This document shows, in pieces, positions 20,367 to 51,898 of a stretch of DNA of 51,898 bases. The position numbers and the translations under genes are program-made. The stretch is from positions 1 through 51,898 of the forward strand of contig JAOZPT010000009.1 of the NCBI GenBank assembly GCA_029932605.1, in the 5' to 3' direction. Origin of the DNA: Candidatus Zixiibacteriota bacterium (GTDB lineage Bacteria > Zixibacteria > MSB-5A5 > UBA10806 > 4484-95). Below the pieces are notes generated by a model. That model ran no database searches and was not told the origin of the DNA. It worked only from the letters and a program-made list of their open reading frames with translations. Each line of letters starts with the position of its first letter. Position 1 is the first letter of the stretch.

Positions 20367-20795
20367 TTGCAAAATCGTCTCCGGAATGCATGTGGTTTTA
20401 CATTAATCGAACTGATGATGGCTATACTTATTGTCTCCATTTCAATTGCCGCATTATACTATATGTATGCGCAGGGAAAGGTCTTATTGGAAGAACAATT
20501 TCATCGTCGCCTCGCTCTTGAAAAGGCTCGGAATAAAATGGAATGGTTGAAATATCTGGAGAGAACAAATGAGAATAACCCGGGACATGTGCCTCTAAAT
20601 GCTCGTGAACATGGAGTGGAATTTCTCGTCAGACCTGACACAGCTAATGGAACGGTAGGTATTGTAGCTCAGTATGTGGTAGATGTAGAACCTTCTCCCG
20701 GGGGCCAGTCGTTGTATGAAACTGTGTCGGTTATATATAGCTGGGAAGAACCCTCGGGAAGAGAATATGAGGTAAAATTAACATCAATATATTAA
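20367..20795 (+). CDS. Minor pilin (PilV-like)
   Basis: G|FTLIELMMAILIV. Start revised from 20292 to the in-frame TTG at 20367, which has GGAG 7 nt upstream and gives a short basic leader. Confidence 0.85.
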   Translation: MQNRLRNACGFTLIELMMAILIVSISIAALYYMYAQGKVLLEEQFHRRLALEKARNKMEWLKYLERTNENNPGHVPLNAREHGVEFLVRPDTANGTVGIVAQYVVDVEPSPGGQSLYETVSVIYSWEEPSGREYEVKLTSIY

Positions 20796-20802
20796 AAATT
20801 CA

Positions 20803-21396: not shown

Positions 21397-21448
21397 ATCA
21401 ATGGAGTTAATCTAGTGTTCTGTCCAAGAAATATCATTATGATATATA

Positions 21449-21554
21449 GTCATTGCGAACGAAGTGAAACGATCTCAGCTACATTTGTATCAGGAGATTG
21501 CACAGATGTGTCTTGGGACTTCGTCGTCAAATTTGGCGAACTCATCGCTATGAT
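21449..21554. repeat. Degenerate REP-like palindromic element (GTCATTGCGA... family)
   Basis: Outer arms GTCATTGCGA / TCGCTATGAT and inner arms CGATCTC / GAGATTG; resembles the widespread GTCATTGCGAGCGAAGCGAAGCAATCTC...GAGATTGCTTCGTCG...TCGCAATGAC repeat. Confidence 0.6.
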
Positions 21555-21601
21555 AAATGGTTGTATTGTTGTTTTTAGGATGCTAATTTAGGAGGGACTA
21601 T

Positions 21602-23143
21602 ATGAGATATTTGAAGCCAGAACAATATTTGCTAAAAAACCAGAGTGGTTCGGTGCTGATAATGGCTGTAATTATGTCAATTATAATCGTCATTCTTGGT
21701 ACCGCTTTTATGAAGTTCGTTGACCATACCAGACAGCTGATAACTTGGGATATCGCTGAATCACAGGCACGCTATGCAGCAAATGCAGGAATATTAATAG
21801 GCAATCTTGAATATGAAATAAGGGGGGGATTGCCGGATGGTTATAGAAGTTCGACATTTCGATTGGCCAAAAACGTAAATTATGATTATGAGATCAGAAT
21901 CAACAATATCGCTGAATATGGTCTTTCAACCATCATTAAATATGTTGTACTTGGCAATGGTTATGCATCCACCTATGAATTTGAGGACCCCATAGAATAT
22001 ACTGTTGGCTGGGCTGCTGGCGCTCAATCTTTTGCCGATTGGCTTTATTTGACCGATAGGGAGACTCAGGAATACAGGCCTGCCTATGCTTGCACTCTTA
22101 GATTCTGGGGACCGGATACTCTTGATGGAAAGGTTCATTCAAATGATAAATTATGTTTTCAATTTGGGAATGGTGGCTGGCCAGCTTTTTTGGAATTCGT
22201 GACATCGTGCTCTACCAGATTTTCATTTGATCCTTCTCCAGGTCCTCCATATGAATCCATATTTCTTGGCGGTTACGAACTTGGTTACTCATACATTTAC
22301 TTGCCCAATACCGCTGATTCAGTAAGGTTATATAACGGCATTACGCCTGTTCTTGGAAACCCCTCACCTGATATCGTAACCGAGATTACTTTGGATTATG
22401 GCACGATATACGTTCGGTACCGGACTGCCGATTCGTTGAGTCGAGAGGATCCATCATCCTGGGTCTGGTTAGGTGGGGCTGATCATTATACGCTGGGGGA
22501 GATGTATCCCGTACCATCTTCAGGAGCTTTATTTGTTGATGACGAGTTATGGATTGCCGCACCTAAAAACAAGCCTCATTATTGCGACCCGGGTGGTGAT
22601 GTGTTAAATGGTTTCCAGGGGCAACTTACTATCGCTGCCTCCGGTGATATCATTATTGCTCAGGATGTGGTTGTCGCCTCAGCCAATCCTGATGGCACAG
22701 TTCCCATAGAATCGGAAGATCTTCTGGGTCTTATATCCGAAAAACATATACTTGTATGGAGACATTGCCCTAATACAGTTAACATAACGGCGGCCTTAGC
22801 GGCTGTTGGTCAAAATATTCCTGATACGTCCAAGGCCAAGATATGCCTTAACGGACAGATTTCCGAGGATGGTCAGAATGGTACTATATCAATGGATGGC
22901 ATAAATTGTTATGGTATATTTAATGAAAAGACAGAGTTGTTTATATTTGGTTGTCTGATACAGCGGGAGCGCGGTCTAATCCATACACATTACAGCCCCT
23001 CTCCAGATATCCCCCAGGAATACCGTGGTTTCGAATCTAAAGATTATAAATATGATTTCCGGTTCAAAAAGACTCCACCACCACATTTTTTAACGACAGA
23101 TGCCCCTGGTGCCTGTTATTTTGAAAATTACAGGGAGAGTTAA
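21602..23143 (+). CDS. Large PilX-like pilin, ComZ/DUF4900-like
   Basis: QSG|SVLIMAV (no E5, as in PilX/GspK), QARYAANAG, DGKVHSND, LTIAASGDIII, LLGLISEK, IFGCLIQ and C-terminal YKYDFRF..TPPPHF. Confidence 0.75.
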   Translation: MRYLKPEQYLLKNQSGSVLIMAVIMSIIIVILGTAFMKFVDHTRQLITWDIAESQARYAANAGILIGNLEYEIRGGLPDGYRSSTFRLAKNVNYDYEIRINNIAEYGLSTIIKYVVLGNGYASTYEFEDPIEYTVGWAAGAQSFADWLYLTDRETQEYRPAYACTLRFWGPDTLDGKVHSNDKLCFQFGNGGWPAFLEFVTSCSTRFSFDPSPGPPYESIFLGGYELGYSYIYLPNTADSVRLYNGITPVLGNPSPDIVTEITLDYGTIYVRYRTADSLSREDPSSWVWLGGADHYTLGEMYPVPSSGALFVDDELWIAAPKNKPHYCDPGGDVLNGFQGQLTIAASGDIIIAQDVVVASANPDGTVPIESEDLLGLISEKHILVWRHCPNTVNITAALAAVGQNIPDTSKAKICLNGQISEDGQNGTISMDGINCYGIFNEKTELFIFGCLIQRERGLIHTHYSPSPDIPQEYRGFESKDYKYDFRFKKTPPPHFLTTDAPGACYFENYRES

Positions 23144-23281
23144 TAAATATGATGTTTGTAGTTAATGGAAAATTAAGTGATAGGAGGACGGGGAACTGGT
23201 GATTTCAGAAATGAGATAATCAGTTATTTAGAATATTAAGGTGGTTTTTTTGATAAAAGTAGCGCCAAGTGAAAGGATGGT

Positions 23282-24334
23282 ATGGCTAAGTCGGTTATAG
23301 GCCTTGACATAGGTTCTTTTGCCATAAAGTTGGTTGAGCTTGAGAATGATGGGGGGCGGTATAAACTGAAAAATTATTTCATCAAGGACCTTTATGGCAA
23401 GGGGGAAGAATATGATACCGAGGGTCCAGGGGTAAGCAGGCTTGAATCCTCTTTAAGAGAGGTCCTAAGTTCGGTAAAGCTTAATCCTAGAAGGCTGAAA
23501 ATCGTTAATACAAGTATAGGCGGGCCAGTTATTTCAGTAAAACAGATTAAATCGATACCTTTAGCCCCCGAGGAAATGGAGTCATCGCTTTTGTTTGAGG
23601 CTCGTAAGCATTTACCTCTTGATGAATCTGATGCGGTGATCGACTACCAGATATTAAGGGGTGATATGCAATCTCAGGATATGGAGATTTTATTGGTAGC
23701 CACGACTAAAAAGGTGTTTGAAAATCATCTCAAGCTTCTAAAAAGTGTTGGGATCTCTCCCCACATAATAGATGCTGATATCCTGGCCGTTGTTAACAGC
23801 TATCTTGTGTCAACAGGTAGTCTTATGGGTGATAAGGCACTTGTATTTTTGGATGTTGGAGCAAAATATACTAATATAGCGATTGTCAGTGAAGAGACGA
23901 TGTTTTTTTCACGGGATATAAGTTGGGCAGGCACAAATTTTACTGAAGATATCAAAAACAGCATGAAGCTTGATTATATTGAAGCGGAGGCTATAAAGAA
24001 GGAGCGCGGAATGGGAGCCCTTTTGGGTGAGGGTTCAAAGGAAAGTGGCGGTATCAGGGTTGCCCGGAGAATGGCGATTGACAATTTAATCGACGAAATT
24101 CGAAGGTCCTTGAGATATTATACCAAAGAGACCGGATGCCGCGAGTATCAGAAGATTTTATTGTGTGGTGGTTCATCCGCTTTGCCTAATTTGAATTCCC
24201 ATTTAGCCCAGCATTTAAAGATGGCTGTAGAGCTGTATAATCCTTTCATTAATTTTGTTACACCCCCTGGTTTTGACGATATGCTTGGTTCTCGCCTGGC
24301 TGTTTCATGTGGTTTAGCCTTGAGGGAGGATTGA
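23282..24334 (+). CDS. pilM: Type IV pilus assembly protein PilM
   Basis: IGLDIGS.AIKLVE, FEARKHLP, VIDYQ, LLVA, LDVG and LLCGG actin-like motifs. Confidence 0.95.
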   Translation: MAKSVIGLDIGSFAIKLVELENDGGRYKLKNYFIKDLYGKGEEYDTEGPGVSRLESSLREVLSSVKLNPRRLKIVNTSIGGPVISVKQIKSIPLAPEEMESSLLFEARKHLPLDESDAVIDYQILRGDMQSQDMEILLVATTKKVFENHLKLLKSVGISPHIIDADILAVVNSYLVSTGSLMGDKALVFLDVGAKYTNIAIVSEETMFFSRDISWAGTNFTEDIKNSMKLDYIEAEAIKKERGMGALLGEGSKESGGIRVARRMAIDNLIDEIRRSLRYYTKETGCREYQKILLCGGSSALPNLNSHLAQHLKMAVELYNPFINFVTPPGFDDMLGSRLAVSCGLALRED

Positions 24335-24335
24335 T

Positions 24336-24917
24336 ATGACTAAAATTTACTATACAATCAACCTGAACAAAGTCTCTAACCGCCTCGATCAATTCCAAGA
24401 GAAACAGAAGCGAAGACGAGTTTTTGCTGTAGGTTTTTACTTTTTTATCATTATAATAATTACAGCTCTAGCTATTGGCAAATCTGTCTATACTCAAAGA
24501 ACCATTAATGGACTCAAAGCTGAACTTGCAGAGATTCAGAGCGAGATTGACAATCTTGAGGCCTCCTCGGACTACCTCTCGCCTGAGGATATTTTTGCTT
24601 TAGCAGAACTGGCTAATTCACGTTTGACCTGGACTGAAAAATTTGACGTTCTGGGAAAGATAATACCAGAGGATGTTACCATTACCGGGCTGGATTATGA
24701 CTATCAGGTGAAAGCTCTGATGATTAAGGGGATTTCTAAGGTTAATCCGCAATTGGAGGACCTTGACCTAGTCGTTTCTATCATCAATTTGATAAAAAGT
24801 AATAAAAATTTCTCCTCGGATTTTAGCGACATCAAGTTCCATTCCTCAAATAGGATTAAACATAAAGGACAGGATATTGTCGAGTTTGAAATTGCCTGTT
24901 TAGTAGGGGTGGGTTGA
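24336..24917 (+). CDS. pilN: PilN
   Basis: N-terminal INL motif, TM helix, coiled coil, IPEDV.I; position after pilM. Confidence 0.85.
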   Translation: MTKIYYTINLNKVSNRLDQFQEKQKRRRVFAVGFYFFIIIIITALAIGKSVYTQRTINGLKAELAEIQSEIDNLEASSDYLSPEDIFALAELANSRLTWTEKFDVLGKIIPEDVTITGLDYDYQVKALMIKGISKVNPQLEDLDLVVSIINLIKSNKNFSSDFSDIKFHSSNRIKHKGQDIVEFEIACLVGVG

Positions 24918-24919
24918 TC

Positions 24920-25534
24920 ATGAAAAAGAACCTTATTTTGAGTGGTCTTTTGGTTGTATATATATTGGGGTTCTGGATTTATTACAAAAATGTCATCGAG
25001 CCCCAGCCAACTGAAATAGCCGAGCTGGAAATGAAACTGGCCGAGAAAAAACGTCAGCTGTTATCAGCTCAGATCATTTCTAAAAATCTTCAAAACGTCA
25101 ACGAATTGATTCAATGCAACCTAGTCGAGGATTTGAGCGATTCATTAGCCGAATCGGCAAGTATACCTTTTTTAAAATACCTCACCAGCCTCATGGATGA
25201 ACTGGATATTGTTTTAGTCTCAATGCAACCCATGGAGGTTTTACAACAGCGCAATCTGGCTGAAGAACAATTAATCGAACAGGATTATATCGAGATACCT
25301 TACAGCATGACTATTCTTGCCAGCTATAAGCAGTTTGGGAAATTTCTTGAGAGGCTCGAGAAATATCCACAGTTGATTAAAGTAGCCAGAATTCAACTTG
25401 AGAACTCTTTAGATGCCGCTATTTATGAGGGGCAGATCGTTGGTAAACCTGACCAACATAGAATTAACCTTGAAATTCATACAATGACAATTTTGAAAGC
25501 GAGTTTTAAAGGTGGATCAGAACAGTTTAATTAG
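24920..25534 (+). CDS. pilO: PilO
   Basis: N-terminal TM helix, coiled coil, YIEIP...SYKQFGKFLERLE...LIKV; the ATG at 24920 is preferred over the TTG at 24914. Confidence 0.88.
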   Translation: MKKNLILSGLLVVYILGFWIYYKNVIEPQPTEIAELEMKLAEKKRQLLSAQIISKNLQNVNELIQCNLVEDLSDSLAESASIPFLKYLTSLMDELDIVLVSMQPMEVLQQRNLAEEQLIEQDYIEIPYSMTILASYKQFGKFLERLEKYPQLIKVARIQLENSLDAAIYEGQIVGKPDQHRINLEIHTMTILKASFKGGSEQFN

Positions 25535-26048
25535 AGCTTTAACATTTATACTTGGCGTGGTCTTGTTATTGGCAGTTTCTTGGGGTGCGTTTAAAGCTGT
25601 GACAGAGGCCAAGGCTGACTATAAAGTGGTAGATGCAATCGAAACTTTGGATACTGATATAGCCCTGGCTCAGACTATCGATTCGCTGGAGGCTAAATGG
25701 AATCACCGCTTGAACTATCATTTCGGTGTCAAACAGGATCCCCTTTTCCTGGGAAGAGTGATTGTCGGTTTTTCTTACTCTCGTATGGGCTACAGAGAAT
25801 TTGATGAGGGTATTGGTTTTCGACTTTCTGCAACCGTTATTGATAACAATCCCAAGGCGATTATCAAGTTTAAGGGGAAAAGCCATGTTCTCCAGGTAGG
25901 TGATACTTTAGAAGGTGGATATGTAATAAAAGAGATAATGAAGAAAAAGGTTGTGCTTAATCGAAATGGCGAGTTAACGGTTTTATCTACCAAACCCGTT
26001 GCCCAAATGTTTGACCAATATATTGACCAGAGTTATGATTATCGGTAA
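25512..26048 (+). CDS. PilP-like protein (TM-anchored, no lipobox Cys)
   Basis: QDPLF followed by LSATV...KAII...LQVGDTL...IKEI...VVL (PilP/GspC-HR pattern); lies between pilO and pilQ. Confidence 0.75.
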   Translation: MDQNSLIRALTFILGVVLLLAVSWGAFKAVTEAKADYKVVDAIETLDTDIALAQTIDSLEAKWNHRLNYHFGVKQDPLFLGRVIVGFSYSRMGYREFDEGIGFRLSATVIDNNPKAIIKFKGKSHVLQVGDTLEGGYVIKEIMKKKVVLNRNGELTVLSTKPVAQMFDQYIDQSYDYR

Positions 26049-26090
26049 AGACATAACGTTTTCGTTAATAATGTAAATCGGGAGGATATT

Positions 26091-27608
26091 TTGAGAGATT
26101 TGGTGCGGATAAGTTTTGCGGTTTTGTTGTTTATGCTTTTAACATTTTTTAAAAGCGACATATCGTTTGCTCAAACCAACACTGAAAATCAAGCTCCATC
26201 GACAGCATTAAGGAAGGGTTTATCCAAGACAGTAACACTTGATGCGGATGATGCTTTTCTGCCGTCGATTTTGACCATCCTGGCAGAAAAATCGGGTTTT
26301 AACATTGTAACCGGTCCGGGAGTTAACAGGCAAGAACGAATATCGGTTCATTTAGCTGACACACCAATTGAGGAGGCAATTAACCTTGTCGTCAGGGCGG
26401 CGGGTTTATCATATGAGATAGTCGGCAACTCATTTTTAGTTGCTGAACAAGAAGCTTTAGAAAAGGAGGTTGGTCTTTCGGCTCATGTTTATGATTTACA
26501 GTATGCCAATGCAGCCGAGATAAAAGAGTTGTTAATGGATTTAAGCGATAAGGTCCAGGTTGACACCTCCGGCAATAAAATTTTGGTTTTATCATCACCT
26601 AAGATAGCCTCTGAAATAACAGAGATAATTAAACGTGTGGATACTCCACCGATGCAGATTTTGTTGGAAGCCAGGCTGGTTGAGATTGCTACTGATGACC
26701 TTGATGAGTATGGTATTGATTGGGAGAAACTTTCACATTTAACGACCATACTGGCTGAATCTCCTCTGATAAAGGACGATTACGGTCGCCCGTTGGATGG
26801 AAGCAGTCGTGCTCCTACCGAACAAGATTTTGGTGGCCAGTTGCCAGACCTTGAACAACTTCCCGAAAAATATTCTTTTGAGAAGGTAGAGGGTTTTGAT
26901 AATGTTGGGAAATTTTCCCGGCAGTTGAATGCATTCGATATCACCTTAGATTTTCTTGTTAAGCGAAACGTAGCCAAAGTACTTGCCCATTCTAAGTTGA
27001 CTACTGTGAACAATCGCACTGCAGAGATTTTGATAGGTGAGAAAATGCGCTGGGCTGTGGTTTCGGAAAGGGGTGCTATAGTTCAAGAGGAAGATATTGG
27101 GATACGTTTGATAATCACGCCAACTATCAATTCAAATGGTTTCATTACTGTTAAGGTTGAACCGGAGGTTTCCTCTGTTATCGAATTGGTGCAGGGGCTT
27201 TTCCCACGTAAAAAAATCCGGACTGCAAGCACCACTGTTTTGGTAAAAGACGGCCAAAAGATATTTATCGGTGGGCTATTGTCGGTTGATGATACCAAGA
27301 CGGTATTCCGTTTGCCCATTCTTTCGGATATACCGCTTTTAGGAAAACTATTTACACATACTTCTTATGGAACAAGGAAGACCGATTTGATAATAGAAGT
27401 AACCCCGAGGATATTGAGACCTGGTATGAGTTATGCTGATGCCGCCAATTTCACCTCGGATGGATACCAGCTTTTGGGGCCGGGTTCGACCTCGGACATT
27501 AAAGCGGTAGAACCCGAGTTGGAGAAAATGGAAAAAGTAAAAAATTTACAGGAAGATATAAGAGAATTTCAAGATAGAGTGGTTAAACCGAAAAAAGAGA
27601 AGCGATAA
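26091..27608 (+). CDS. pilQ: Type IV pilus secretin
   Basis: Signal peptide; YDLQYANA, QILLEARLVE, GIDW, AEILIGE, GIRL.ITP, VKDGQ..FIGGL, LPILSDIPLLGKLF and VTPRI. Confidence 0.93.
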   Translation: MRDLVRISFAVLLFMLLTFFKSDISFAQTNTENQAPSTALRKGLSKTVTLDADDAFLPSILTILAEKSGFNIVTGPGVNRQERISVHLADTPIEEAINLVVRAAGLSYEIVGNSFLVAEQEALEKEVGLSAHVYDLQYANAAEIKELLMDLSDKVQVDTSGNKILVLSSPKIASEITEIIKRVDTPPMQILLEARLVEIATDDLDEYGIDWEKLSHLTTILAESPLIKDDYGRPLDGSSRAPTEQDFGGQLPDLEQLPEKYSFEKVEGFDNVGKFSRQLNAFDITLDFLVKRNVAKVLAHSKLTTVNNRTAEILIGEKMRWAVVSERGAIVQEEDIGIRLIITPTINSNGFITVKVEPEVSSVIELVQGLFPRKKIRTASTTVLVKDGQKIFIGGLLSVDDTKTVFRLPILSDIPLLGKLFTHTSYGTRKTDLIIEVTPRILRPGMSYADAANFTSDGYQLLGPGSTSDIKAVEPELEKMEKVKNLQEDIREFQDRVVKPKKEKR

Positions 27609-27640
27609 TTATGTGTTAAAGGATGATTAGGAGGAAGATT

Positions 27641-30391
27641 ATGCATAGAAGCAAAAGATATTTATACATTTATTTAGTTATTGCGATAACCGTATTAATT
27701 GGCTTTGTGATATTTTCAGCCTGTGATAGCAGGAAGCCTATCTCCTCGACCACAGCGAAAATAACGAGCGTTTCAGAGATTACAATTATCTTCGATCCTC
27801 CTCAGGTTAATATTTATAATGAGAATGAGATTGACACAGTAACTATAGATATTACAGTTACAGACGATGAGGGGGTTGGCATAGACAACCTCGATGTAGA
27901 TTTGAGCCGAAGCCCTAATATTGGAGCTGTAACCAAACCGGAGGCAACCTCTACTCAGGGTCATTATCAGGCCAAATATTTTACAGCTCTTAACGGTTAT
28001 GGTGATATCGAGTTTAGAGCATCTGTAGGCGATGTTTATGCCGTGGATACGCTATCTGTTATACAGCAGGCACTTGTTTCTAATATTACGATTTTCTTTA
28101 ATCCCCAGTATGTTGTTTTGTATGGTGAAAATGATATAGACACTGTTAATGTAAGCATTCTGGTTGCTGATGAGAATGGTATAGGGTTAGATAACCTGGA
28201 TGTGGCTTTAAACATCATCCCCAATCTTGGAACTATCACCAATCCTCAGGCTACCGGTAGCGGGGGGTATTATCAATCACAATATATTACAGCGCCAGGC
28301 AGAGATGTTGATATAACGTTTACGGCGACTGCAGGTAGTATGAGTATATCAGATACTCTCAGTATCTTTGTCCAGCCAGCAAATACTGTTGAGGAGATTT
28401 TTATGAGTTTCAATCCTCAACCTCTTATCATACATTCTCCTTTTAAATCGGATACAGCTTTAATAGATATCTGGGTAAGAGATGCCAATGGCGTTAGCTT
28501 AGATAGTATCATGGTACAGGTTTCGAGAATGCCCGAAGTTGGCACCATTGTTCCACCGGGTTTGACAGAAGATGGTTATGCACAGGGAATGTATATTACC
28601 GATCCCGGGATTTACCAGGATGTTGGTATAACGGTTAACGTTGGTGAAGTTACGATTACCGACACTTTGTTGATAAACGTTCAGCTTCTGGGGGAAATCG
28701 GTTCGATGAACATATCGTTGCAAAAACAGATATTGATAGCTGATGGTATGGATGCTACATCCATTTTTGTCTCTGTTACGGATACTACCGGTATTCCTAT
28801 AGGGGATGGGACTATAGTTTTCATTCAGAATTACGGCCCTGGAACCCAGGGAACTTTGAACGAGAGTTCGGGTTACACAGAAAATGGGATTGCCACATTT
28901 ACAATAACTGCGCCCCCGATTTTAAATCCTGATTTAATTGTCGAAAGCGATTCCATAAGAGCCTGGGGTGTAAGTTTGTCGGGCGACACAGTCTATGCGT
29001 ATTCGGCGGTGACCTATGTTCCCGGCGAACCCAACGATTTGAATATTATTACAATACCTGAGGAAATGGTTGCGGGTTCCGGTGAGAGCCAGATATTTGA
29101 GGTTTTGGTAACGGATGAGAATAATAATCGGGTGATCGATGGCACCCAGGTGCAGTTTGCAAATGTGCTTGAAACCTCAAGTATTACTGATATAACTACA
29201 ACTTTAGGTGGTATGGCCGAGGGTGTTTATGTTGTTGGCATAGAAGCTGGTTTGGATGTTATTAAGGCTTTTAGGGTTACACCCGGAACCACAGACACTT
29301 TGTGGTCTAATGCTATACCTTTAACGGTGCGCTCAGCCGAGGGAAGCAATATCGCTATTATTGCCGAACCAACAACAATAGAGGTTGGTGGAATTGCCTG
29401 TAATGTATATGCTACCATGCAGGATGAGAATGATAACCCTTTGAGTGAAGGTTTTCCTGTGATGTTTGAAATCACTTCGCATCCAGGCGCTCATAATACA
29501 AGAGAAAGCCCATCTTTCGAATATGTACCCACTGATGATTCAGTACTTTATGTTACAATAGATTCTACAGATGTTAACGGTCGTGCATCTGTGTCACTTT
29601 TTTCGGGTACCACATCAGGAACCGTCACCATAAAGGCCACTTCGGTGGATAATCCAAATATCTTTAAAGAGAAACCCTTAGTTGTTATCGAATCAGGTCC
29701 ACCTATGAATGTGGCAATATCCGGTGGCGCCAATCCTTATGTAGACGGTGCAATTCTTGTTTCTGATGTAACCGCTGTCGTTTCTGACTCATTTACCAAT
29801 CCTGTTGAATGTAGTACAGCTGTCCATTTCGAGCTTATCCCGGATTCAATAGCCGAGATAAATGGTGATGCCTTTACTGGTGGTTGTATAGATACGGTGA
29901 CAGGAGAAACACTCGGTACGCCTGGACTGGCTCATACTTGGCTTGCCTATCCCTGCTACAGTACTTTCGATACCATTCAGATTATAACCTATTCGGGTGA
30001 ATTGATCGATACAAGTATTCTCCTTCCTCTGGGTTTATATGAGGGCACGATTTATGTTGGAGCAAATCCTGCCTCGATATGGCTTAGTAATCCCGGTGAG
30101 TCAGATACTTCGGATATTGAATCCGAACTGACCGATGGTCTCCACTGCCCGATAGAGCATGGTGTAATTGATTTTTCTGCACGTAATGCGGGTCAGATAG
30201 TTGAGGGGATGGAACGAGATACAACCGATGAATATGGCCATGCTTATTCCAAGTTCTTTATCTTCTATGAACAGATACCTCCGAATCCTCCAAATGATCC
30301 CAATGTAACTGCTGAGGCAGTTGCCAAACTTAGGGGTTATCCAGATATCGAGGGTAAAGCTGAAATCGTATGCCGTCGTCCACCGGGTTAG
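27641..30391 (+). CDS. Large lipoprotein made of tandem invasin/intimin-like Ig (Big_1-like) domains
   Basis: Start revised to the ATG at 27641 (AGGAGG RBS); lipobox FSA|C; recurring V.D.NG, V.DGT.V.F and T..NG.A motifs; three similar ~100-aa N-terminal repeats. Confidence 0.8.
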   Translation: MHRSKRYLYIYLVIAITVLIGFVIFSACDSRKPISSTTAKITSVSEITIIFDPPQVNIYNENEIDTVTIDITVTDDEGVGIDNLDVDLSRSPNIGAVTKPEATSTQGHYQAKYFTALNGYGDIEFRASVGDVYAVDTLSVIQQALVSNITIFFNPQYVVLYGENDIDTVNVSILVADENGIGLDNLDVALNIIPNLGTITNPQATGSGGYYQSQYITAPGRDVDITFTATAGSMSISDTLSIFVQPANTVEEIFMSFNPQPLIIHSPFKSDTALIDIWVRDANGVSLDSIMVQVSRMPEVGTIVPPGLTEDGYAQGMYITDPGIYQDVGITVNVGEVTITDTLLINVQLLGEIGSMNISLQKQILIADGMDATSIFVSVTDTTGIPIGDGTIVFIQNYGPGTQGTLNESSGYTENGIATFTITAPPILNPDLIVESDSIRAWGVSLSGDTVYAYSAVTYVPGEPNDLNIITIPEEMVAGSGESQIFEVLVTDENNNRVIDGTQVQFANVLETSSITDITTTLGGMAEGVYVVGIEAGLDVIKAFRVTPGTTDTLWSNAIPLTVRSAEGSNIAIIAEPTTIEVGGIACNVYATMQDENDNPLSEGFPVMFEITSHPGAHNTRESPSFEYVPTDDSVLYVTIDSTDVNGRASVSLFSGTTSGTVTIKATSVDNPNIFKEKPLVVIESGPPMNVAISGGANPYVDGAILVSDVTAVVSDSFTNPVECSTAVHFELIPDSIAEINGDAFTGGCIDTVTGETLGTPGLAHTWLAYPCYSTFDTIQIITYSGELIDTSILLPLGLYEGTIYVGANPASIWLSNPGESDTSDIESELTDGLHCPIEHGVIDFSARNAGQIVEGMERDTTDEYGHAYSKFFIFYEQIPPNPPNDPNVTAEAVAKLRGYPDIEGKAEIVCRRPPG

Positions 30392-30420
30392 TAGCAGGAT
30401 AGGTGTGAAGAGGTTGGATC

Positions 30421-32124
30421 ATGAAGCTGCTTGGAGAAATTTTAATAAAAGAAAATATCATCTCTGAAAAAGAGTTGCGAGCGGCTCTTAAAAAGCAGAA
30501 AGAGAATGGCAGGAGACTTGGTGAGACTTTAATCGCTGAGGGTTATATAACCGACGAGAACCTTGCTACCGCTTTATCTGAACAATTGCAGGTTAGGATG
30601 GTTGGTGCTGAAGATCTCATCAAGGTCGACAAGGAAGCTTTAGAGTATATACCGGAGTTTTTTGCCCGTGAGTACCATTGTATTGCCAAGGGGGTTGAGG
30701 ATGGCGTTCTCGAGGTAGTGATGATTGATCCCGAGGATATCGTGGTAATAGATAACCTTCAGAAAATCACCTCCTTGAAAATCGTTCCTTACATAGGTGC
30801 TCAGGGTATAATCGATGAAGCTATCGAGCGCCATTATAAAGAGCTTCGAACAACAGGCGAGGTTACCGAGGCCTTGTCGGGTATGGATTTTGTGGTTACT
30901 GGCGAGAGTGGTGAGATTGATAATATCGATGTCAATGAACTGAAAAAGGAGCTTGACGAAGCGCCGATTGTCAAGCTTGTCAACTTGATAATCTCGGAGG
31001 CTATAAAAAATAGGGCCACCGATATTCATATCGAACCTCTTTTCGATTCTTTACTGGTAAGATATCGTATCGATGGTGCTCTTCAGGATATCATGACGGC
31101 ACCCAAGAAGTCTGCTATGGGAGTCATCTCAAGGTTAAAGGTGATGGCCAGCCTTAATATTGCTGAAAGACGTCTCCCCCAGGACGGTCGAATATCTATC
31201 GTGATGCCCGAAAAAGAGGTTGATATCAGGGTTTCGATTATGCCAACGGTAAGAGGCGAGAAGGTGGTCCTTCGCCTTTTAGATAAGAAAGGATTTGCTT
31301 TTACACTGCCCTCACTGGGATTTGAACCGGAGATGCTTGAGATATTCCGCAAATGGATAACCATGCCATATGGTATGATTATAGTTTCCGGACCAACCGG
31401 CTGTGGAAAATCAACTACTCTCCATGCTGCTTTAAAAGAGATTCAGTGTGAGGAAGACAATATTGTCACGGTGGAGGACCCGGTTGAATATCAGATCGAT
31501 AAGATAAACCAGATTGCCGCTAGCGAAAAAATCGGTTTGACATTTGCCACGACCTTGCGGCATATACTTCGACAAGACCCGGATAAGGTTCTTATCGGTG
31601 AGATACGAGATAGGGAGACTGCTGACATTGCCATAAAATTTGCTCTGACCGGTCATCTCGTATTTACAACTCTTCATGCTAACGATGCACCATCAACGAT
31701 TACCAGGCTTTTGGATATTGGTGTTCCACGTTATCTTGTTGGTTCAACCTTAAATCTTGTAATGGCTCAGCGCCTGTTACGCACTCTCTGTTCGGCATGT
31801 AAAGAGGAATATGAACCTGATGAAGAGGAATTAGCCAGAATAAAACTTGACCCTTCCATGATTAAAAATAAAAAAATATACCGTGCTAAAGGTTGTGTGA
31901 GGTGTCGTAATACCGGTTATTATGGAAGGACGGGGATGTTCGAACTTCTGGAAGTCAAATTACCGGTGCGAAAATTGATATATGAGGGTAAGGATCAAGA
32001 TGATATCAGATTTAAGGCTAAAGATGCTGGTATGTTGACTCTCCGTGATGCTGGAATAAAGAAGGTATTAGCTGGATTGACATCAATTGAAGAGGTTTTA
32101 AGAACTACTGTAGAGGAAGAGTAG
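30421..32124 (+). CDS. pilB: Type IV pilus extension ATPase with N-terminal MshEN-like motifs
   Basis: ATDIHIEP, RLPQDGR, GPTGCGKST, EDPVEY, LRQDPD..LIGEIRD and tetra-Cys (CSAC/CVRC). Confidence 0.95.
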   Translation: MKLLGEILIKENIISEKELRAALKKQKENGRRLGETLIAEGYITDENLATALSEQLQVRMVGAEDLIKVDKEALEYIPEFFAREYHCIAKGVEDGVLEVVMIDPEDIVVIDNLQKITSLKIVPYIGAQGIIDEAIERHYKELRTTGEVTEALSGMDFVVTGESGEIDNIDVNELKKELDEAPIVKLVNLIISEAIKNRATDIHIEPLFDSLLVRYRIDGALQDIMTAPKKSAMGVISRLKVMASLNIAERRLPQDGRISIVMPEKEVDIRVSIMPTVRGEKVVLRLLDKKGFAFTLPSLGFEPEMLEIFRKWITMPYGMIIVSGPTGCGKSTTLHAALKEIQCEEDNIVTVEDPVEYQIDKINQIAASEKIGLTFATTLRHILRQDPDKVLIGEIRDRETADIAIKFALTGHLVFTTLHANDAPSTITRLLDIGVPRYLVGSTLNLVMAQRLLRTLCSACKEEYEPDEEELARIKLDPSMIKNKKIYRAKGCVRCRNTGYYGRTGMFELLEVKLPVRKLIYEGKDQDDIRFKAKDAGMLTLRDAGIKKVLAGLTSIEEVLRTTVEEE

Positions 32125-32172
32125 AACTGTATAGATTTAAATGAAGGATTTATTATAAGCTTGGATTGAGAT

Positions 32173-33426
32173 ATGGCGTCATTTAGTTACGTGGTAAAAG
32201 ACTCAAAGGGGAACAAACACGAGGGTACTGTCACAGCAGTCTCTCTTGATGCGGCTCTAAATAAACTTCGCGAAAGCGGTAATACCGTTATCTCGGTAGT
32301 GGACACCAGGCAAGCTAAGCAAACAACCAGGGGCAATCTATTTGATGCTATTATACTGTATATCCACAAGAAGCGTACTGCTATCCCTTTAAGGAATTTG
32401 GTATTCTTTACCCGTCAGTTGGCTACCATGTTTTCGGCTGGTTTAACCATTGAGAAATCCCTTAATAATCTTCTTTATGAAGAGGGAAATCGCAAATTTA
32501 AGAAAGTGATTGCCGAACTTTTGAATGATGTTAAAAAGGGATTTTCGTTATCTGACGCAATGGACCATCATCCAGGAGTATTTTCACCTCTTTACGTGGC
32601 ATTGGTCAAATCTGGAGAGATATCGGGTTCACTGGCCTCTGTTTTAGAGGAGTTGGCAGATTATCTTGAATTTATCCAGGATACGCGCCGGAAAGTGATC
32701 TCGGCCCTATCCTATCCGTTTTTTGTAGTTACTATTTTACTTATACTGGCAGTTTTTCTAGTGGTAAAGATTGTGCCTATGTTTCAGGATGTTTACAGCC
32801 GTTTTGGAGCCGAGCTCCCATACCCTACTCAGGTTTTGATAATGGTTTCCGAGACAATTAGATACAATTTTTTTGTGTCACTGATAGGTTTTTTATTCTT
32901 AATTGCCTTGATTATTATCACCAATCTGACCTATACCGGAAAATACATATTCGATAAGGTGAAACTCATAATTCCTATTTTCAAAAACCTGATAATTAAC
33001 TCCACAATGAGCAAAATGTCGAGGACTTTTGGAATGCTTTTGGGAGCAGGTGTTCCTGTTGTGGATACAATGGGGTTGGTGCATAAGGTGATTGACAATA
33101 TGCATTACCAGAAAGCCATAAAGCAGGCGATAGGCTATATCCGTGATGGTTACTCGATAGCGGCTTCTTTGAAGAAAACCGATGTATTTCCCAATACTTT
33201 GTTATCCCTTACGTCTACAGGCGAGGAGACTGGTGAAATTGAGAAGATGCTGGCTAAAGCTGCCGATTATTACGACAAGCAACTTGAGGCGGTTGTTTCC
33301 CGACTCACCTCCCTTATTGAGCCGATGTTGATTGTACTTATAGCAGTTGTTATTGGAACTATAGTAGTTGTTATTTATTTACCGATTTTCCATATAGGGA
33401 CAGCTCTCAGAAAAGGACTCCAGTAA
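32173..33426 (+). CDS. pilC: Type IV pilus platform protein
   Basis: FTRQLATMFSAG, GEISGSL, ALSYP, ELPYPTQ, GEETGE, LIEP and YLPIF. Confidence 0.95.
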   Translation: MASFSYVVKDSKGNKHEGTVTAVSLDAALNKLRESGNTVISVVDTRQAKQTTRGNLFDAIILYIHKKRTAIPLRNLVFFTRQLATMFSAGLTIEKSLNNLLYEEGNRKFKKVIAELLNDVKKGFSLSDAMDHHPGVFSPLYVALVKSGEISGSLASVLEELADYLEFIQDTRRKVISALSYPFFVVTILLILAVFLVVKIVPMFQDVYSRFGAELPYPTQVLIMVSETIRYNFFVSLIGFLFLIALIIITNLTYTGKYIFDKVKLIIPIFKNLIINSTMSKMSRTFGMLLGAGVPVVDTMGLVHKVIDNMHYQKAIKQAIGYIRDGYSIAASLKKTDVFPNTLLSLTSTGEETGEIEKMLAKAADYYDKQLEAVVSRLTSLIEPMLIVLIAVVIGTIVVVIYLPIFHIGTALRKGLQ

Positions 33427-47135: not shown

Positions 47136-48305
47136 ATGAGTTTTGCCGGAAATTTAGAAACAATATCACTACCTGATATATTCCAGCTGATTTTTTCTAC
47201 TAAGAAGACGGGACTTCTTGTTATCTCCAAGGGAGATATTAAAAAGGAAATCTATTTTAAGGATGGTTTTACAGTTTATGCCTCCTCCACAGAGGAAAGG
47301 GATTTATTCGGTAATCTACTTTTAAAAATGGGGCGGATATCAAAGGCCGAGCTTGATAAGGTGCTAAAAGAAAAAAAGGAGGGCAAGAAAATTGGCAGTA
47401 CACTGGTGGAAATGAAACTGTTTACGCGTGAAGAGATTATGGATTGCCTACGGTTACAGATCGAGGAGACAATTTATAGCTTATTTGGCTGGAAGGATGG
47501 TGAGTTTAATTTTTTTGAAGGAAAAACACCACCTCCAGGTTCTATCCAGACCGAATTAAATCCAATGAATATAATTATGGAGGGAACGCGCCGGATCGAT
47601 GAATGGGCAGAGCTTAAGAAAATTCTTCCTCCTGATGATGCTTATCTCATGTTGGAAAAAATCCCCCAGCTGAAAACCGAGGAGATCCATTTAAGCCGAA
47701 ATGATATACTGGTTATGGCCAATATAGGTTCGGGGAAAAAGATGGGTGAACTTCTTAAGGAATCTTCGCTTGATCAGTTTCTAACCTCAAAAGCGTTGGC
47801 GAAATTACTGCAGATGGGACTTGTAAAGATAGGTGAGATTGTTAAGGAGGAAAAACCAAAAGTTGATGAAACAGAAGAGTTGATTAAACTTCTGGCAGTT
47901 ATTTACAAACACAATTTTGAGATAATACTGAGCAACCTGAAGGATAAAATGGGTTCCAAAGGTGAAAAGGTATACGCTGAGACATTCCAGGAACGCAAGT
48001 TAGATTATCCACTTTTGTCTGGTTTAATAAACGGTAGGGAAGGTGAACTTTGTTATGAGCTATTTCTTAAACTAGCGAAATCCCTCCCGAAAGAAGCATG
48101 CGTACATCGCTTGATCGTAAATTTCAATGATTTATTATCTGATTATCTGATTATCATACAGAAATATCTTGGGAAAAAGATGTATAAACGGACTCTTTCA
48201 CAGATAAGAATTCAAACCCAAAACAGTATTAATAGCAAGAAACAATTAGCGCTAAAATATGGACTTGAGGACGAATTTTCAAGGGCCTTAAAGGATGTTC
48301 GTTAA
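47136..48305 (+). CDS. DUF4388 (PatA-N-like) domain protein
   Basis: GNLETISLPDIFQLI...KKTGLL...IYFKDG, LFGWKDGEFNF and MEGTRRIDEW. Confidence 0.88.
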   Translation: MSFAGNLETISLPDIFQLIFSTKKTGLLVISKGDIKKEIYFKDGFTVYASSTEERDLFGNLLLKMGRISKAELDKVLKEKKEGKKIGSTLVEMKLFTREEIMDCLRLQIEETIYSLFGWKDGEFNFFEGKTPPPGSIQTELNPMNIIMEGTRRIDEWAELKKILPPDDAYLMLEKIPQLKTEEIHLSRNDILVMANIGSGKKMGELLKESSLDQFLTSKALAKLLQMGLVKIGEIVKEEKPKVDETEELIKLLAVIYKHNFEIILSNLKDKMGSKGEKVYAETFQERKLDYPLLSGLINGREGELCYELFLKLAKSLPKEACVHRLIVNFNDLLSDYLIIIQKYLGKKMYKRTLSQIRIQTQNSINSKKQLALKYGLEDEFSRALKDVR

Positions 48306-48307
48306 TC

Positions 48308-48679
48308 ATGGGTAAAAAAGTATCTGTTCTGGTTGCATTTTTAGTGGCAACATTTTTTAATGAGGCGTTTGCTGGTGAGTTTTATAAGCTTTATCCGTTG
48401 TGGCTTGAATATGCTTACCGATTATTGGCTTTGGTATTGATATCGGCTGGTTTATTTGTGTGTTTTTCTGTTTTTAACACATTGAGGGGTGGCAAGTTTG
48501 GGTTGCCATGGGCGTTTTTGCTGATGGCTCTAGTGACCATATTTATCAGGACATTACTTGAGGTCTTAACCGTTTTCGATATTGCTTATTTTCAGGCCTA
48601 TGTTTTTGCAGGCATTTATATCTTGTTTTTCCTTTTGCTCTTGGTTGGATTTATTCTTTATAAAATTGGTTTGGAATAA
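48308..48679 (+). CDS. Small polytopic membrane protein, function unknown
   Basis: Signal-like or TM N-terminus plus three TM helices; starts 2 nt after the upstream stop. Confidence 0.75.
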   Translation: MGKKVSVLVAFLVATFFNEAFAGEFYKLYPLWLEYAYRLLALVLISAGLFVCFSVFNTLRGGKFGLPWAFLLMALVTIFIRTLLEVLTVFDIAYFQAYVFAGIYILFFLLLLVGFILYKIGLE

Positions 48680-48723
48680 GGATGGAGTGTTGATACAATG
48701 GTTTTTCTGACGATAAAGTATAA

Positions 48724-49560
48724 GTGAGAAGTGTTATGAATATTGATGTATCAGAGTTAGACGATCGGATTGCTAAGTGCCAGACGATACTTGATGCCAA
48801 TCCCAATAGCCAGATATTCGCTGCTTTAGCAGAGGCTTATAGAAAGAAAGGGATGGTCAAGAAGGCTCTTGATATCTGTCTTAAAGGGCTTGAGAAACAT
48901 CCCGATTACGGTTCAGCTTATCTTGTACTGGCAAGAGTATTTTACGATAAGGGAGATTATATTGAAGCCAACCGCCATTTGAAAAAAGCAATATCGGTCA
49001 GTGGTCGGACAAGGTCGGTGGATCTCTTTGAAGCGGAGATATTAATCAAGCTGTCCCAGCCCGGCAAAGCCAGGAATATTTTGGAAAAACTGTACAAATC
49101 TGACCCGAACAATGAGGTGATAAAAAATCTTTTGGTCTCTCTTGACCGTGAAGCAAGTCGAGCCTCGGCTATAATGGACGAAACCGAGAAATCCGAATCA
49201 TCGTTAAAGAAGACTTATACCCTATCAAATGCTTTAAGTGTGATAAAAATATTACCCCGAGTCCTCGGAGTTGTGGCTGTAGCAAGAGATGGTATTGTAG
49301 TTGAGGGGCATTTCGACGGTATGTTGTCCCATGATGAAATCGGGGCATTAGCCTCGGCGGTCTTTGACGGCATAAAACAGGGAATAGCCAAAATTGATTA
49401 TGGAAAATTATATGAAATACTTGTGGAATCGGATAAGTCCAAGCTGTGGATTATAAATCGTGTCGATTATATTATTGTTATCTTCACCCGTGATGATGTC
49501 AACATTGGCTCTTTGAGATTTAAAGTGAATGAAATTTTAAAAAAGATGAAAAATTCTTAA
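48724..49560 (+). CDS. TPR + roadblock/LC7 fusion protein
   Basis: FAALAEAYRKKG...GLEKHPDY TPR pattern; C-terminal VLGVVAVARDGIVV...GALAS roadblock; start may be 48736. Confidence 0.85.
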   Translation: MRSVMNIDVSELDDRIAKCQTILDANPNSQIFAALAEAYRKKGMVKKALDICLKGLEKHPDYGSAYLVLARVFYDKGDYIEANRHLKKAISVSGRTRSVDLFEAEILIKLSQPGKARNILEKLYKSDPNNEVIKNLLVSLDREASRASAIMDETEKSESSLKKTYTLSNALSVIKILPRVLGVVAVARDGIVVEGHFDGMLSHDEIGALASAVFDGIKQGIAKIDYGKLYEILVESDKSKLWIINRVDYIIVIFTRDDVNIGSLRFKVNEILKKMKNS

Positions 49561-49570
49561 CAGGGTAACT

Positions 49571-49972
49571 ATGCTGGCCGTTAAACAGGACAAGAAGGAA
49601 AACAAATTTCAAAATGCTCTGGAGTATCTTGGTGAATATCGAGGTGTGAAAGGAGCGGTGATTTTTGATATAGAGGGACTCGTCGTTGGTTATTTATCTC
49701 GAGATGGTTTTGATGCCGAGATATTTTCACCTTTGGTATTGTTAATGCATGATAATGTAAATGCCATTATGAAAAGGCTTGGTGAAAAACCTGCACAATC
49801 CATAGTGGTTAAAAATCCTGATAGCTGGATTACGGTTATACGTATAGGAAATCTAGTGCTGGTAGTCAATGCTGATAACAAGACTGACGAGCTATTAAAA
49901 GTCAGGATTGGTCAAGCGGTCGATATGATAGAAACACATTTGAGAGATAAATATCCTTTGCTGGTAAAATAA
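49571..49972 (+). CDS. Roadblock/LC7 domain protein (divergent)
   Basis: GVKGAVIFDIEGLVV...LGE...LVLVV...LLKVRI. Confidence 0.8.
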   Translation: MLAVKQDKKENKFQNALEYLGEYRGVKGAVIFDIEGLVVGYLSRDGFDAEIFSPLVLLMHDNVNAIMKRLGEKPAQSIVVKNPDSWITVIRIGNLVLVVNADNKTDELLKVRIGQAVDMIETHLRDKYPLLVK

Positions 49973-49984
49973 ATTGGAGGTTTT

Positions 49985-50323
49985 ATGTATAATGTTCTAA
50001 GCGACCTTAACAAGACATCTGGTGTTAGAGGGTCTATGCTTGTAGGGGCCGATGGTATTATTATTGCCGCTGACTTAGATTCGAAATTTGAGGATGAAAC
50101 TGTTGGTGCGTTATCGGCGTCGATAGTTTCCAGCGTTGGTAAAGCTATGGAGCGCCTGAAAAACGAATCCGCCAAACAGATAACCGTCGAAGCGGAATAT
50201 GGCAAATTGTTTTTAACTGATGCGGGTGTCGGTATCCTTACGGTAATTACCGAAAAAGATGTTAACATAGGACTGGTTAGGCTTGAAATTAAAAATGCTG
50301 TATCCAAAATAAGTGGACAATAG
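49985..50323 (+). CDS. Roadblock/LC7 domain protein (MglB/MglC-like)
   Basis: GVRGSMLVGADGIII...GALSA...VNIGLVRLE; GGAGG RBS. Confidence 0.9.
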   Translation: MYNVLSDLNKTSGVRGSMLVGADGIIIAADLDSKFEDETVGALSASIVSSVGKAMERLKNESAKQITVEAEYGKLFLTDAGVGILTVITEKDVNIGLVRLEIKNAVSKISGQ

Positions 50324-50333
50324 GGTATAAATA

Positions 50334-51488
50334 ATGGTATCGATAAATTATGCTTTCAAGGAGATAATCTCCAAGATCGTTTACTATGGACCCGGTCTTT
50401 CGGGGAAGACTACTAATCTTCAATATGTGTTTAATAAAGTACCTAAGGATACACGTGGTGAGATGATAAGTTTGGCTACTGATGCCGATAGGACATTGTA
50501 TTTTGATTTTCTACCGCTCAATGTTGGGAACATTGGTGGTTTTTCCACGAAGTTCCAGCTGTATACGGTCCCCGGGCAGGTTTATTACAATGCCACCAGG
50601 AAACTTGTTTTGCGGGGTGTTGATGGTCTGGTGTTTGTTGCCGATTCCCAGGTTGAGAAGATGGATGAGAATATTGAATCATTAATAAACCTTGAGGAGA
50701 ACCTGGCAGAATATGGTTACGATTTTACCGATATTCCCTTAGTGATTCAATATAATAAACGTGACCTGCCAAATATAGCCAGTATTGAACAGCTTCAGGA
50801 GTTGTTGAATTCCAGGGGGGTGCCGTATTTCGAAGCGGTGGCAACCACTGGCCAGGGTGTGTTTGCAACGTTAAAGGCAATAAGTAAGATGGTGCTGGAT
50901 AAAGCTCGAGAAAAAAGCGCGGGAAAACCAAGAAGAACTGAACCGGCAGTTGTAAGTTCGACTGTGTCGGCGGAGACTAAAGAGCGCTCAATTGCCGTAG
51001 TAACAAGAGAATCTCCAGCAAAACAGATATCGGCTGAAGAGATTAAAAAATCGCCACCGGAAAAAGAAGCTCCGTTAGAAAAACCAGCTATTGCTTCAGA
51101 ATATGACACCATGACCAACGTGGTGGTTTCAACCTCTGCGGAAGATATTGAGGAGGAAAAGGAAGAGGCTCCAAAAGAAGACCTTGAGGAAACTACTGTC
51201 CATTCAGAGTTGAAAGAAGATTCCAAAGAGGATGATATCCAGACAGATTCCAGCAACATACATCCTGATATACTTGATGGAGAGAAGATAAACTCTACGA
51301 AAACTGATGAGACTCCCAAGCAGGAAGAAAAACCGGCAAGTGGGTTTGATGAGGAAATTACTGTTGTTACTGACCCACACCAAGTTGGCCAGTTGTTGGC
51401 CAAGCCCCAGATGGCTAAGAGCAAGAAAGTGAAGGGGAAAAGGAAATTTCAATTATTTGGCTGGTTAAAGAAGAAAAATACATCATGA
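50334..51488 (+). CDS. mglA: MglA-family small Ras-like GTPase with a long C-terminal extension
   Basis: KIVYYGPGLSGKTTNL, DRTLYFDF, LYTVPGQ, QYNKRDL and EAVA in the first ~190 aa, followed by an acidic low-complexity tail. Confidence 0.93.
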   Translation: MVSINYAFKEIISKIVYYGPGLSGKTTNLQYVFNKVPKDTRGEMISLATDADRTLYFDFLPLNVGNIGGFSTKFQLYTVPGQVYYNATRKLVLRGVDGLVFVADSQVEKMDENIESLINLEENLAEYGYDFTDIPLVIQYNKRDLPNIASIEQLQELLNSRGVPYFEAVATTGQGVFATLKAISKMVLDKAREKSAGKPRRTEPAVVSSTVSAETKERSIAVVTRESPAKQISAEEIKKSPPEKEAPLEKPAIASEYDTMTNVVVSTSAEDIEEEKEEAPKEDLEETTVHSELKEDSKEDDIQTDSSNIHPDILDGEKINSTKTDETPKQEEKPASGFDEEITVVTDPHQVGQLLAKPQMAKSKKVKGKRKFQLFGWLKKKNTS

Positions 51489-51505
51489 TATAAAGGAGGC
51501 TTTAA

Positions 51506-51898
51506 GTGGCTCAGGAAAACCAGGTACTTTACGAAGAGGAGATTGAACAGATCGACCGGGTGCTTACTCGCTTGATAAAGGAAGCAGAGGCTAAGTGCGC
51601 GTTGCTGGTTGACAAGGATGGTCATTTGATCACCCGTCAGGGGTTCACGCACACTCTTGATACGACCGCCCTGGCGGCTTTATTAGCTGGTAGTTTTGCC
51701 TCGACAAGAGAGATTGCCAGACTGGTAGGAGAACCTGAATTTTCGGTTTTGTTCCACCAGGGAAAGCGTGACCATATTCATATCTCCTTAATTGGAGAGA
51801 GAACCATTTTAGTGGTGATTTTTGACGACCGCACTACTATAGGAATGGTCAGACTTTACGCCAAAGAAGTTAGCGAGGAGCTGCTTGAATTTTTAAGA
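51506..51898 (+). CDS. mglB: MglB (GAP for MglA), truncated by the window end; not in the ORF track
   Basis: AAGGAGG RBS and GTG start; open for 131 codons: MAQENQVLYEEEIEQIDRVL...LLVDKDGHLI...LDTTALAAL...LVGEPEF...FHQG...LVVIFDDRTTIGMVRL, closely following the Myxococcus MglB pattern. Confidence 0.92.
   Translation, partial: MAQENQVLYEEEIEQIDRVLTRLIKEAEAKCALLVDKDGHLITRQGFTHTLDTTALAALLAGSFASTREIARLVGEPEFSVLFHQGKRDHIHISLIGERTILVVIFDDRTTIGMVRLYAKEVSEELLEFLR

Follow-up and report, generated by a model that had tools for sequence, protein, structure and literature searches.

Results

Gene content of the locus

We analyzed a window of 51,898 nucleotides, bases 1-51898 of a 60180-base contig (C30; JAOZPT010000009.1) in the Candidatus Zixiibacteriota bacterium assembly GCA_029932605.1, which ends in an operon built around the small GTPase MglA and several roadblock (RB) domains. 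Seven open reading frames (ORFs), all on the + strand, occupy 47136..51898 with intergenic gaps of 2, 44, 10, 12, 10, and 17 nucleotides (nt), bearing out an original prediction of seven packed co-directional genes 2-44 nt apart. Gene by gene, Pfam returned DUF4388; no family; TPR with a weak Robl_LC7; a weak Robl_LC7; Robl_LC7; a small GTPase; and Robl_LC7.

47136..48305, + strand: PATAN (DUF4388) protein, 389 aa (Pfam PF14332, 115.8 bits)
48308..48679, + strand: small membrane protein, 123 aa (structure model, hydropathy)
48724..49560, + strand: TPR-RB1 fusion, 278 aa (Pfam TPRs and weak Robl_LC7, family profile)
49571..49972, + strand: roadblock RB2, 133 aa (weak Robl_LC7, 20.6 bits; family profile)
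49985..50323, + strand: roadblock RB3, 112 aa, strongly conserved (Robl_LC7, 53.4 bits)
50334..51488, + strand: MglA GTPase, Group 1 by its G1-G4 motifs, 384 aa
51411..51485, + strand: candidate membrane-targeting helix of MglA, last 25 residues (basic-plus-aromatic tail)
51506..51898, + strand: canonical MglB, truncated by the window end (Robl_LC7, 51.9 bits)

At full length, mglB encodes 167 aa including the C-terminal helix and ends at contig position 52009; a short N run just past base 51898 leaves four unknown residues and keeps the frame. In the TPR-RB1 protein, which possibly starts at the ATG at 48739, TPR repeats span residues ~10-140 and the RB1 domain ~164-275. The comEC gene ends 21 nt upstream of the PATAN gene. 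A scan for promoters and terminators was not informative (50 promoter-like sites versus 35.2 expected, 13 terminator-like sites versus 11.0), apart from a clear hairpin after pilC.

Conservation of the operon and its link to pilus motor genes

The operon is followed, 18 nt after mglB and on the same strand of the contig beyond the window, by pilB, pilT, pilC, and a PilS-like kinase gene:

contig 52028-53725, + strand: pilB (TIGR02538, 721.5 bits; cut-off 675.65)
contig 53771-54862, + strand: pilT (TIGR01420, 494 bits over its cut-off)
contig 54882-56081, + strand: pilC (PilC models are the best match, yet under their cut-off)
contig 56131-57855, + strand: PilS-like kinase (label inferred from position and architecture)

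We mapped 97 relative loci, likely from Zixiibacteriota, comprising 37 found as MglA matches and 60 chosen from RB3 matches, so that each set was selected on one member gene. With the third gene scored by its TPR part, the order PATAN-membrane protein-TPR-RB2-RB3-MglA-MglB-PilB was intact in 93 of the 97; the four incomplete loci (L037, L041, L049, L058) are cut by contig ends. The order extends through PilT and PilC in 80 of the 97. RB1 fell below threshold in L281, and single genes were split in L037, L053, L235, and L257. Of 41 genomes, 38 had a single MglA match, and RB3 was matched in 196 of the phylum's 201. Because the gene order is kept in this way, the cluster is not a product of chance, and the co-conservation on which the original prediction depended holds for all seven genes and pilB. 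The module is thus real and phylum-wide. It is apparently undescribed in print: our literature search found no account of it in Zixibacteria, in agreement with the earlier view that no characterized module of this kind was known in the lineage, although supplements or subscription papers outside the search could list it.

Elsewhere in the genome, contig C79 carries pilM followed by pilN/O/P/Q-like genes. With PilB, PilT, and PilC adjacent to the operon and PilM and a secretin in the genome, the neighboring genes represent a type IVa pilus motor. No CheW match was found in this genome, which is 99.96% complete. The window also holds a second co-directional cluster at 19271-33426, encoding a PilT-family ATPase, a prepilin, PilM, a secretin, an Ig-like protein, a PilB/GspE ATPase, and PilC/GspF, which make up a separate system resembling a type II secretion system or a pilus; contig C45 has a third PilB/GspE.

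Four families of roadblock domains

The four domains of the operon are the only Robl_LC7 matches in the whole genome, and the claim that they are four different RB domains is confirmed by profile scores, as each family scores a median of 134-251 bits with its own profile and 3-77 bits across families. The Pfam calls for RB1 (19.4 bits, cut-off 23) and RB2 are weak; we accepted them because the family profiles match solved roadblocks (E values of 6.6e-11 for RB1 and 2.4e-10 for RB2).

The last gene encodes a canonical MglB. Its profile matches solved MglB with 151 bits over positions 4-162, including the C-terminal helix, and the protein falls in the MglB clade with support of 100/99; the partial protein scored 81.6 bits against a Thermus-specific NCBIfam model with a cut-off of 200. 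The extra RBs, in whose context the original prediction cited MglC as a roadblock adaptor, do not group with MglC. In a roadblock tree of 93 rows and 120 columns, in which many forks are open, no Zixibacteria RB falls in the MglC clade, which has support of 100/100, and RB1 adjoins this clade on an unsupported branch only (81/48). The RB3 and RB2 profiles found no MglC chain at E<=1 among solved structures, and an MglC profile gave at most 32 bits on the RBs of the window. Judged by sequence, RB1, RB2, and RB3 are not MglC orthologues.

An acidic residue before an invariant glycine (D26-G27) has been described as marking MglC (PMC4719450). At this position an acidic-Gly motif occurs in RB3 in 92/92 (D), in RB2 in 91/92 (E/D), and in RB1 in 82/92 (E/D) of the sequences, and since the operon's MglB also has D there in 92/92, we do not regard the motif as diagnostic of MglC. 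A basic residue is found at the MglB R115 position in RB3 in 92/92, in RB2 in 91/92, and in RB1 in 90/92.

Of the 96 relatives that have RB2, 74 carry it with an N-terminal hydrophobic membrane domain of 2-4 predicted hydrophobic segments, and the 23 short forms have none; no Atlas match to this domain reached 0.9. The 22 relatives lacking it and the present genome all belong to the same order.

MglA and the membrane components

In sequence, MglA has the motifs GPGLSGKTT (G1), DRT (G2), TVPGQ (G3), and NKRD (G4); all four are conserved, DRT and TVPGQ in at least 90% of 92 homologues. Group 1 MglA proteins are recognized by an intrinsic arginine beside the G2 threonine, a TVPGQ G3 motif, and a coupled mglB within four genes (PMC4316618); here mglB lies 17 nt downstream. 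On these motifs and this gene context, we assign the protein to Group 1; stimulation of its GTPase activity by MglB, a further trait of the group, would be expected.

Its architecture comprises a G domain (residues 1-196), a long low-complexity linker, which measures 80-280 residues among relatives, and a C-terminal basic aromatic helix. The tail passes a basic-plus-aromatic filter in 95 of 96 complete tails, with a median net charge of +8 and a hydrophobic moment of 0.50 versus 0.32 for linker controls (0.39 in this copy). The last 25 residues are therefore likely, on sequence grounds, to form a membrane-targeting helix, which presumably resembles that of MinD; none of the papers listed for MglA and membrane helices concerned an MglA tail. 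An antisense ORF of 209 aa (50795-51424, - strand), rich in serine, lies over the linker and is likely a shadow of its low complexity.

By model and hydropathy, the small membrane protein consists of a signal-like N-terminal helix and three membrane helices with a conserved GG..W loop; the model shows four helices at a predicted local distance difference test score (pLDDT) of 89.3. No Pfam family was common to more than one of 27 members, a fold search returned only generic helical bundles (Z at most 9.5), and its Atlas clusters are commonest in Zixiibacteriota. We rejected the idea that it is a split-off RB2 membrane domain, as the hhalign probability was 0.05 and both co-occur in other orders. 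With these predicted helices, the RB2 membrane domain of other orders, and the basic aromatic MglA tail, the claim that the operon has a membrane component was upheld.

A predicted RB1:RB3 heterodimer

That heterodimers would be predicted was likewise confirmed for the pair modelled. One RB1 domain and two RB3 copies, entered as three chains with their own alignments, scored 0.76, and the best of 3 controls, which were unrelated proteins and not roadblocks, scored 0.00; in calibration, 116 of 157 solved complexes and 2 of 215 mismatched pairs came up to this mark. Contact agreement among runs was at least 89% and partner pLDDT at least 80. In the model, residues 64-80 and 42-62 of the RB1 domain contact residues 61-73 and 35-59 of RB3. 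RB1 thereby occupies the beta3/alpha2 canonical dimer face of one RB3, and the second RB3 copy left that face free.

The score supports binding and is no proof of it: roadblock dimers are among the solved structures, none of the controls was a roadblock, in 10 of 12 calibration cases a close cousin of a true partner also passed, and a three-chain job with own alignments is unlike the calibration set. Likeness to solved roadblock dimers may account for the score. Coevolution analysis (mutual information with average product correction, 92 paired operons, effective number of sequences ~64) gave no usable signal, and its scores, since they tracked variable columns, were not used for or against any pair. 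On the strength of the model, we lean slightly toward a heterodimer of RB1 and RB3.

Alternatively, each RB might form a separate homodimer stacked on MglB like MglC, with the same role in pilus polarity and no true heterodimer. The characterized Myxococcus proteins behave in this way, MglC stacking on MglB through the D26-G27 and R115 surfaces with both as homodimers (PMC10329633), and both stacking surfaces are kept in each extra RB; the heterodimer score, moreover, lacks a roadblock-paralogue control. This arrangement nevertheless seems rather unlikely to us, considering that the model with two RB3 copies put RB1 on the RB3 dimer face, that RB1 is far more variable than RB3 (mean pairwise identity 0.27 versus 0.65), as expected for an accessory protomer, and that one record, described below, has a chain with two RBs.

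The PATAN protein

The first protein of the operon is a DUF4388 protein scoring above the PF14332 cut-off. It comprises a PATAN domain, in which residues 58-107 form an MshEN-like helical insertion, a small domain in the middle, and a helical domain at the C-terminus. Its model (pLDDT 82.8) has MshE (5htl) as best fold match (Z 9.3, root mean square deviation 2.9, 59 aligned residues), and Foldseek gave no match at E<=0.001. An NCBIfam cyclic di-GMP (c-di-GMP) motif scored 38.9 bits against a cut-off of 38. In MshEN c-di-GMP receptors we take an arginine to precede LG in each motif half, as it does in the MshE row of the alignment. Despite the model pass, we do not call the PATAN protein a c-di-GMP receptor, because arginine is present in only 3/96 homologues at the first and 14/96 at the second motif half (L and K in this copy). 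Sensing of c-di-GMP by this protein or by PilB was set aside for lack of the key arginines, the PilB position being E/D in 95/96. The genome encodes two GGDEF-domain proteins with an intact motif.

A second, unlinked PATAN/DUF4388 protein of 269 aa (G000:C61:4085-4894, - strand) has arginines before both LG-type motifs and, from its sequence, is the better candidate for a c-di-GMP receptor. The same contig encodes a 333-aa protein (G000:C61:17901-18902, - strand; also L284:5902-6903) with an atypical receiver domain, an acidic linker, and a short C-terminal helix, which we take to be RomR-like in architecture; no RomR model or structure matched it.

Related loci in other phyla

The TPR-RB1 profile finds TPR-roadblock fusions well outside the phylum. 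Gemmatimonadota have a dnaX-recR-mglB-mglA locus and a second locus with PATAN/TPR, TPR-RB, RB3, MglB-like, and MglA. The RB3 profile matches 37 of 61 Gemmatimonadota genomes. At the 12 best loci an MglB-like gene comes after RB3 in 12/12 and MglA in 11, the other locus being cut; upstream of RB3, TPR-RB is intact in 10 loci, frame-split in one, and cut in one. RB3 of both phyla forms one clade (support 98/99), and the Gemmatimonadota TPR-linked RB matches RB1 (probability 90), not RB2 (8). Among 40 MglA loci from non-Zixibacteria genomes, the module was present in 5 only, all of them Gemmatimonadota second loci. The core of TPR-RB1, RB3, MglB, and MglA thus recurs in Gemmatimonadota.

At two Gemmatimonadota loci (L215:8629-10620, L218:8417-10369), a protein with two DnaA-type ATPase domains directly follows MglA, and PATAN-TPR and cheR or cheB come next. 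At the mglB-mglA loci after recR in Gemmatimonadales (L187-L194), the canonical MglA has ~224 aa and the query match breaks near residue 160, suggesting an insertion. Krumholzibacteria-type loci L183, L195, L198, L199, and L200 carry, as a second MglA, a long-tailed form (372-403 aa) beside which no roadblock gene was detected; a receiver protein and a TPR protein follow it.

The metagenome operon L223 encodes TPR, PATAN/TPR, TPR+RB+RB, MglB, and MglA, with no separate RB gene before mglB-mglA; its fused chain thus holds two different roadblocks where other loci have two genes. A search for further TPR-RB-RB fusions found only this protein (P0067) itself.

In a TPR-motif genome scan, of which the best 80 of 544 confirmed matches were considered, a homologous TPR gene directly precedes a 118-120 aa roadblock in Deltaproteobacteria, Nitrospirota, and FCPU426/Goldbacteria-type genomes. 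This roadblock is MglC (124 bits to 7ct3). The loci L103-L131 (e.g., L127:2565-9720), of FCPU426/Goldbacteria/Firestonebacteria type, contain TPR-RB and mglC, often behind secretin and aro genes.

Discussion

A probable membrane-tethered switch at the pilus motor

We consider it probable that the operon encodes an MglA/MglB switch that is tethered to the membrane and acts on the type IVa pilus motor, with a predicted RB1:RB3 heterodimer as adaptor; that the module controls the pilus motor is the likelier part of this reading. The switch would set where and when the motor runs. The MglA tail may hold MglA on the inner membrane, and the MglB homodimer may drive GTP turnover and set the nucleotide state of MglA, as in Myxococcus. 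RB1:RB3, possibly joined by RB2, would use the acidic-Gly and R115-type surfaces to stack on MglB, taking the place of MglC and localizing MglB, and the TPRs of TPR-RB1 might bind a further partner. The PATAN protein would relay the output to PilB and PilC, in keeping with Synechocystis two-hybrid tests in which PATAN domains bound PilB1 and PilC (bioRxiv 2021.06.11.447907). We infer every binding step of this mechanism.

A larger, stacked multi-RB scaffold is doubtful. Equally tentative is the full version of the proposal, in which membrane-anchored true RB heterodimers (TPR-RB1:RB3 with membrane RB2) are stacked on MglB and position a membrane-tethered GTPase at the pilus motor, PATAN couples the complex to PilB, and the whole forms a bacterial counterpart of the Ragulator architecture with a core shared with Gemmatimonadota. 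Thus, from the original idea of a hetero-RB GTPase-control complex with a membrane component, we retain the predicted RB1:RB3 pair and the membrane features; the four-way oligomer, RB-MglA contact, and a role of the small membrane protein lie outside the supported part.

Several observations weigh against the reading of a membrane-tethered switch at the pilus motor. RB2 is soluble in this genome, and a search elsewhere in the genome found no membrane domain for it. PilT-PilC is separated from PilB in at least six full-length loci (L062, L224-L227, L244), where other genes follow pilB, and the Gemmatimonadota core is found near cheR/cheB, not pilB. The tandem TPR+RB+RB chain can serve as a hint only, because it is a single protein whose second RB lies outside the RB3 clade and is unresolved in the tree.

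Adjacency alone can mislead as well, because comEC precedes the cluster in most loci. With comEC directly upstream, the motor genes directly downstream, and no CheW in the genome, the switch might govern pilus-driven DNA uptake instead of motility. We consider this improbable: in L045, L249, L251, L262, L274, and L282 comEC is not adjacent and the seven genes are still together, and MglA systems are generally known for motility and predation, not competence. The molecular mechanism would, in any case, be the same.

Finally, the FCPU426/Goldbacteria-type genomes with TPR-RB and mglC had no MglA match in 13 of 14 cases, the completeness of these genomes being unstated, so TPR-RB need not depend on MglA. 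As TPR-RB and mglC lie behind pilQ-aro genes there, the extra RBs, TPR, and PATAN could belong to a pilus-associated scaffold independent of MglA that reached this operon through fusion only. This appears very improbable, since TPR-RB, RB3, MglB, and MglA are adjacent in two phyla, and again in L223, under different gene orders.

Comparison with known systems

The closest characterized system is the polarity module of Myxococcus xanthus (MglA, MglB, MglC, RomR/RomX, RomY, and SgmX acting on PilB). Common to both are a Group 1 MglA, a canonical MglB with a C-terminal helix, extra RBs with D-G and R115-type surfaces, a TPR protein, and a type IVa pilus motor as likely output. Unlike in Myxococcus, the genes form a single operon joined to pilB-pilT-pilC; three extra RB families lie outside the MglC clade, of which one is fused to TPRs and another is membrane-bound in most orders; MglA has a long linker and a basic aromatic tail; a heterodimer is predicted instead of stacked homodimers; and no CheW was found. 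The TPR part has its homologue in the TPR gene that lies before mglC in other phyla, and is at most a candidate counterpart of SgmX. RomY has been reported to match no characterized domain model (PMC9481161), and nothing was found in the literature on MXAN_5771.

Associations of MglA with PATAN have been tabulated before (Wuichet and Sogaard-Andersen 2014, PMC4316618): Table S2 has entries for MglB-MglB-MglA-PATAN in Chloroflexus, a fused PATAN:MglB close to mglBA in Chloroherpeton, PATAN>MglA>-PATAN in Gemmatimonas (GAU_1409), and an MglA of 313 aa before MglB in Fibrobacter. In part 1 of 8 of supplementary file 3 of that study, no Group 1 locus has more than two MglB-type genes, and the GAU_1409 row has none; the portions of that source consulted make no mention of a membrane RB, a TPR-RB, or a link to pilBTC. 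The cyanobacterial PATAN regulators PixE, PixG, and LsiR share the DUF4388/PATAN domain with a helical insertion and bind PilB1 and PilC (bioRxiv 2021.06.11.447907). Unlike these, the operon protein has no receiver domain, has a helical C-terminal domain, and is co-encoded with MglA and PilB.

Like Ragulator-Rag, the operon combines a small GTPase and likely membrane tethering with several distinct RB domains, and a heterodimer is predicted. Ragulator has two roadblock heterodimers, of which the one predicted here would match one. The RB2 and RB1 profiles match LAMTOR2 at family level only, none of the seven genes was identified as coding for a LAMTOR1-like strap, and MglA lacks a fused roadblock and does not form a Rag-type heterodimer as far as its sequence shows. 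The likeness is one of analogy, not of membership. The comparison with Ragulator invoked in the original prediction is not new, having been published for the homodimers of the Myxococcus system (PMC9481161, PMC10329633, PMC13408092). The solved Asgard roadblocks Thor-RB and MKD1-RB are also homodimers (PMC11112851, PMC11580455, PMC10933270).

True RB heterodimers would be the new part with respect to Myxococcus. To our knowledge, the roadblock regulators characterized in bacteria are homodimers, and platforms of roadblock heterodimers have been described mainly in eukaryotes. All parts of the operon are small and expressible in E. coli, and Gemmatimonadota, which share the core, include cultured members. 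The operon also assembles in one place proteins that may connect MglA with PilB, a step that is poorly understood. If the prediction is true, an RB1:RB3 heterodimer with a membrane-bound partner would bring the heterodimeric roadblock-platform design to bacteria, and an MglA with its own membrane tail would represent a Ras-like localization of the switch without a recruiter.

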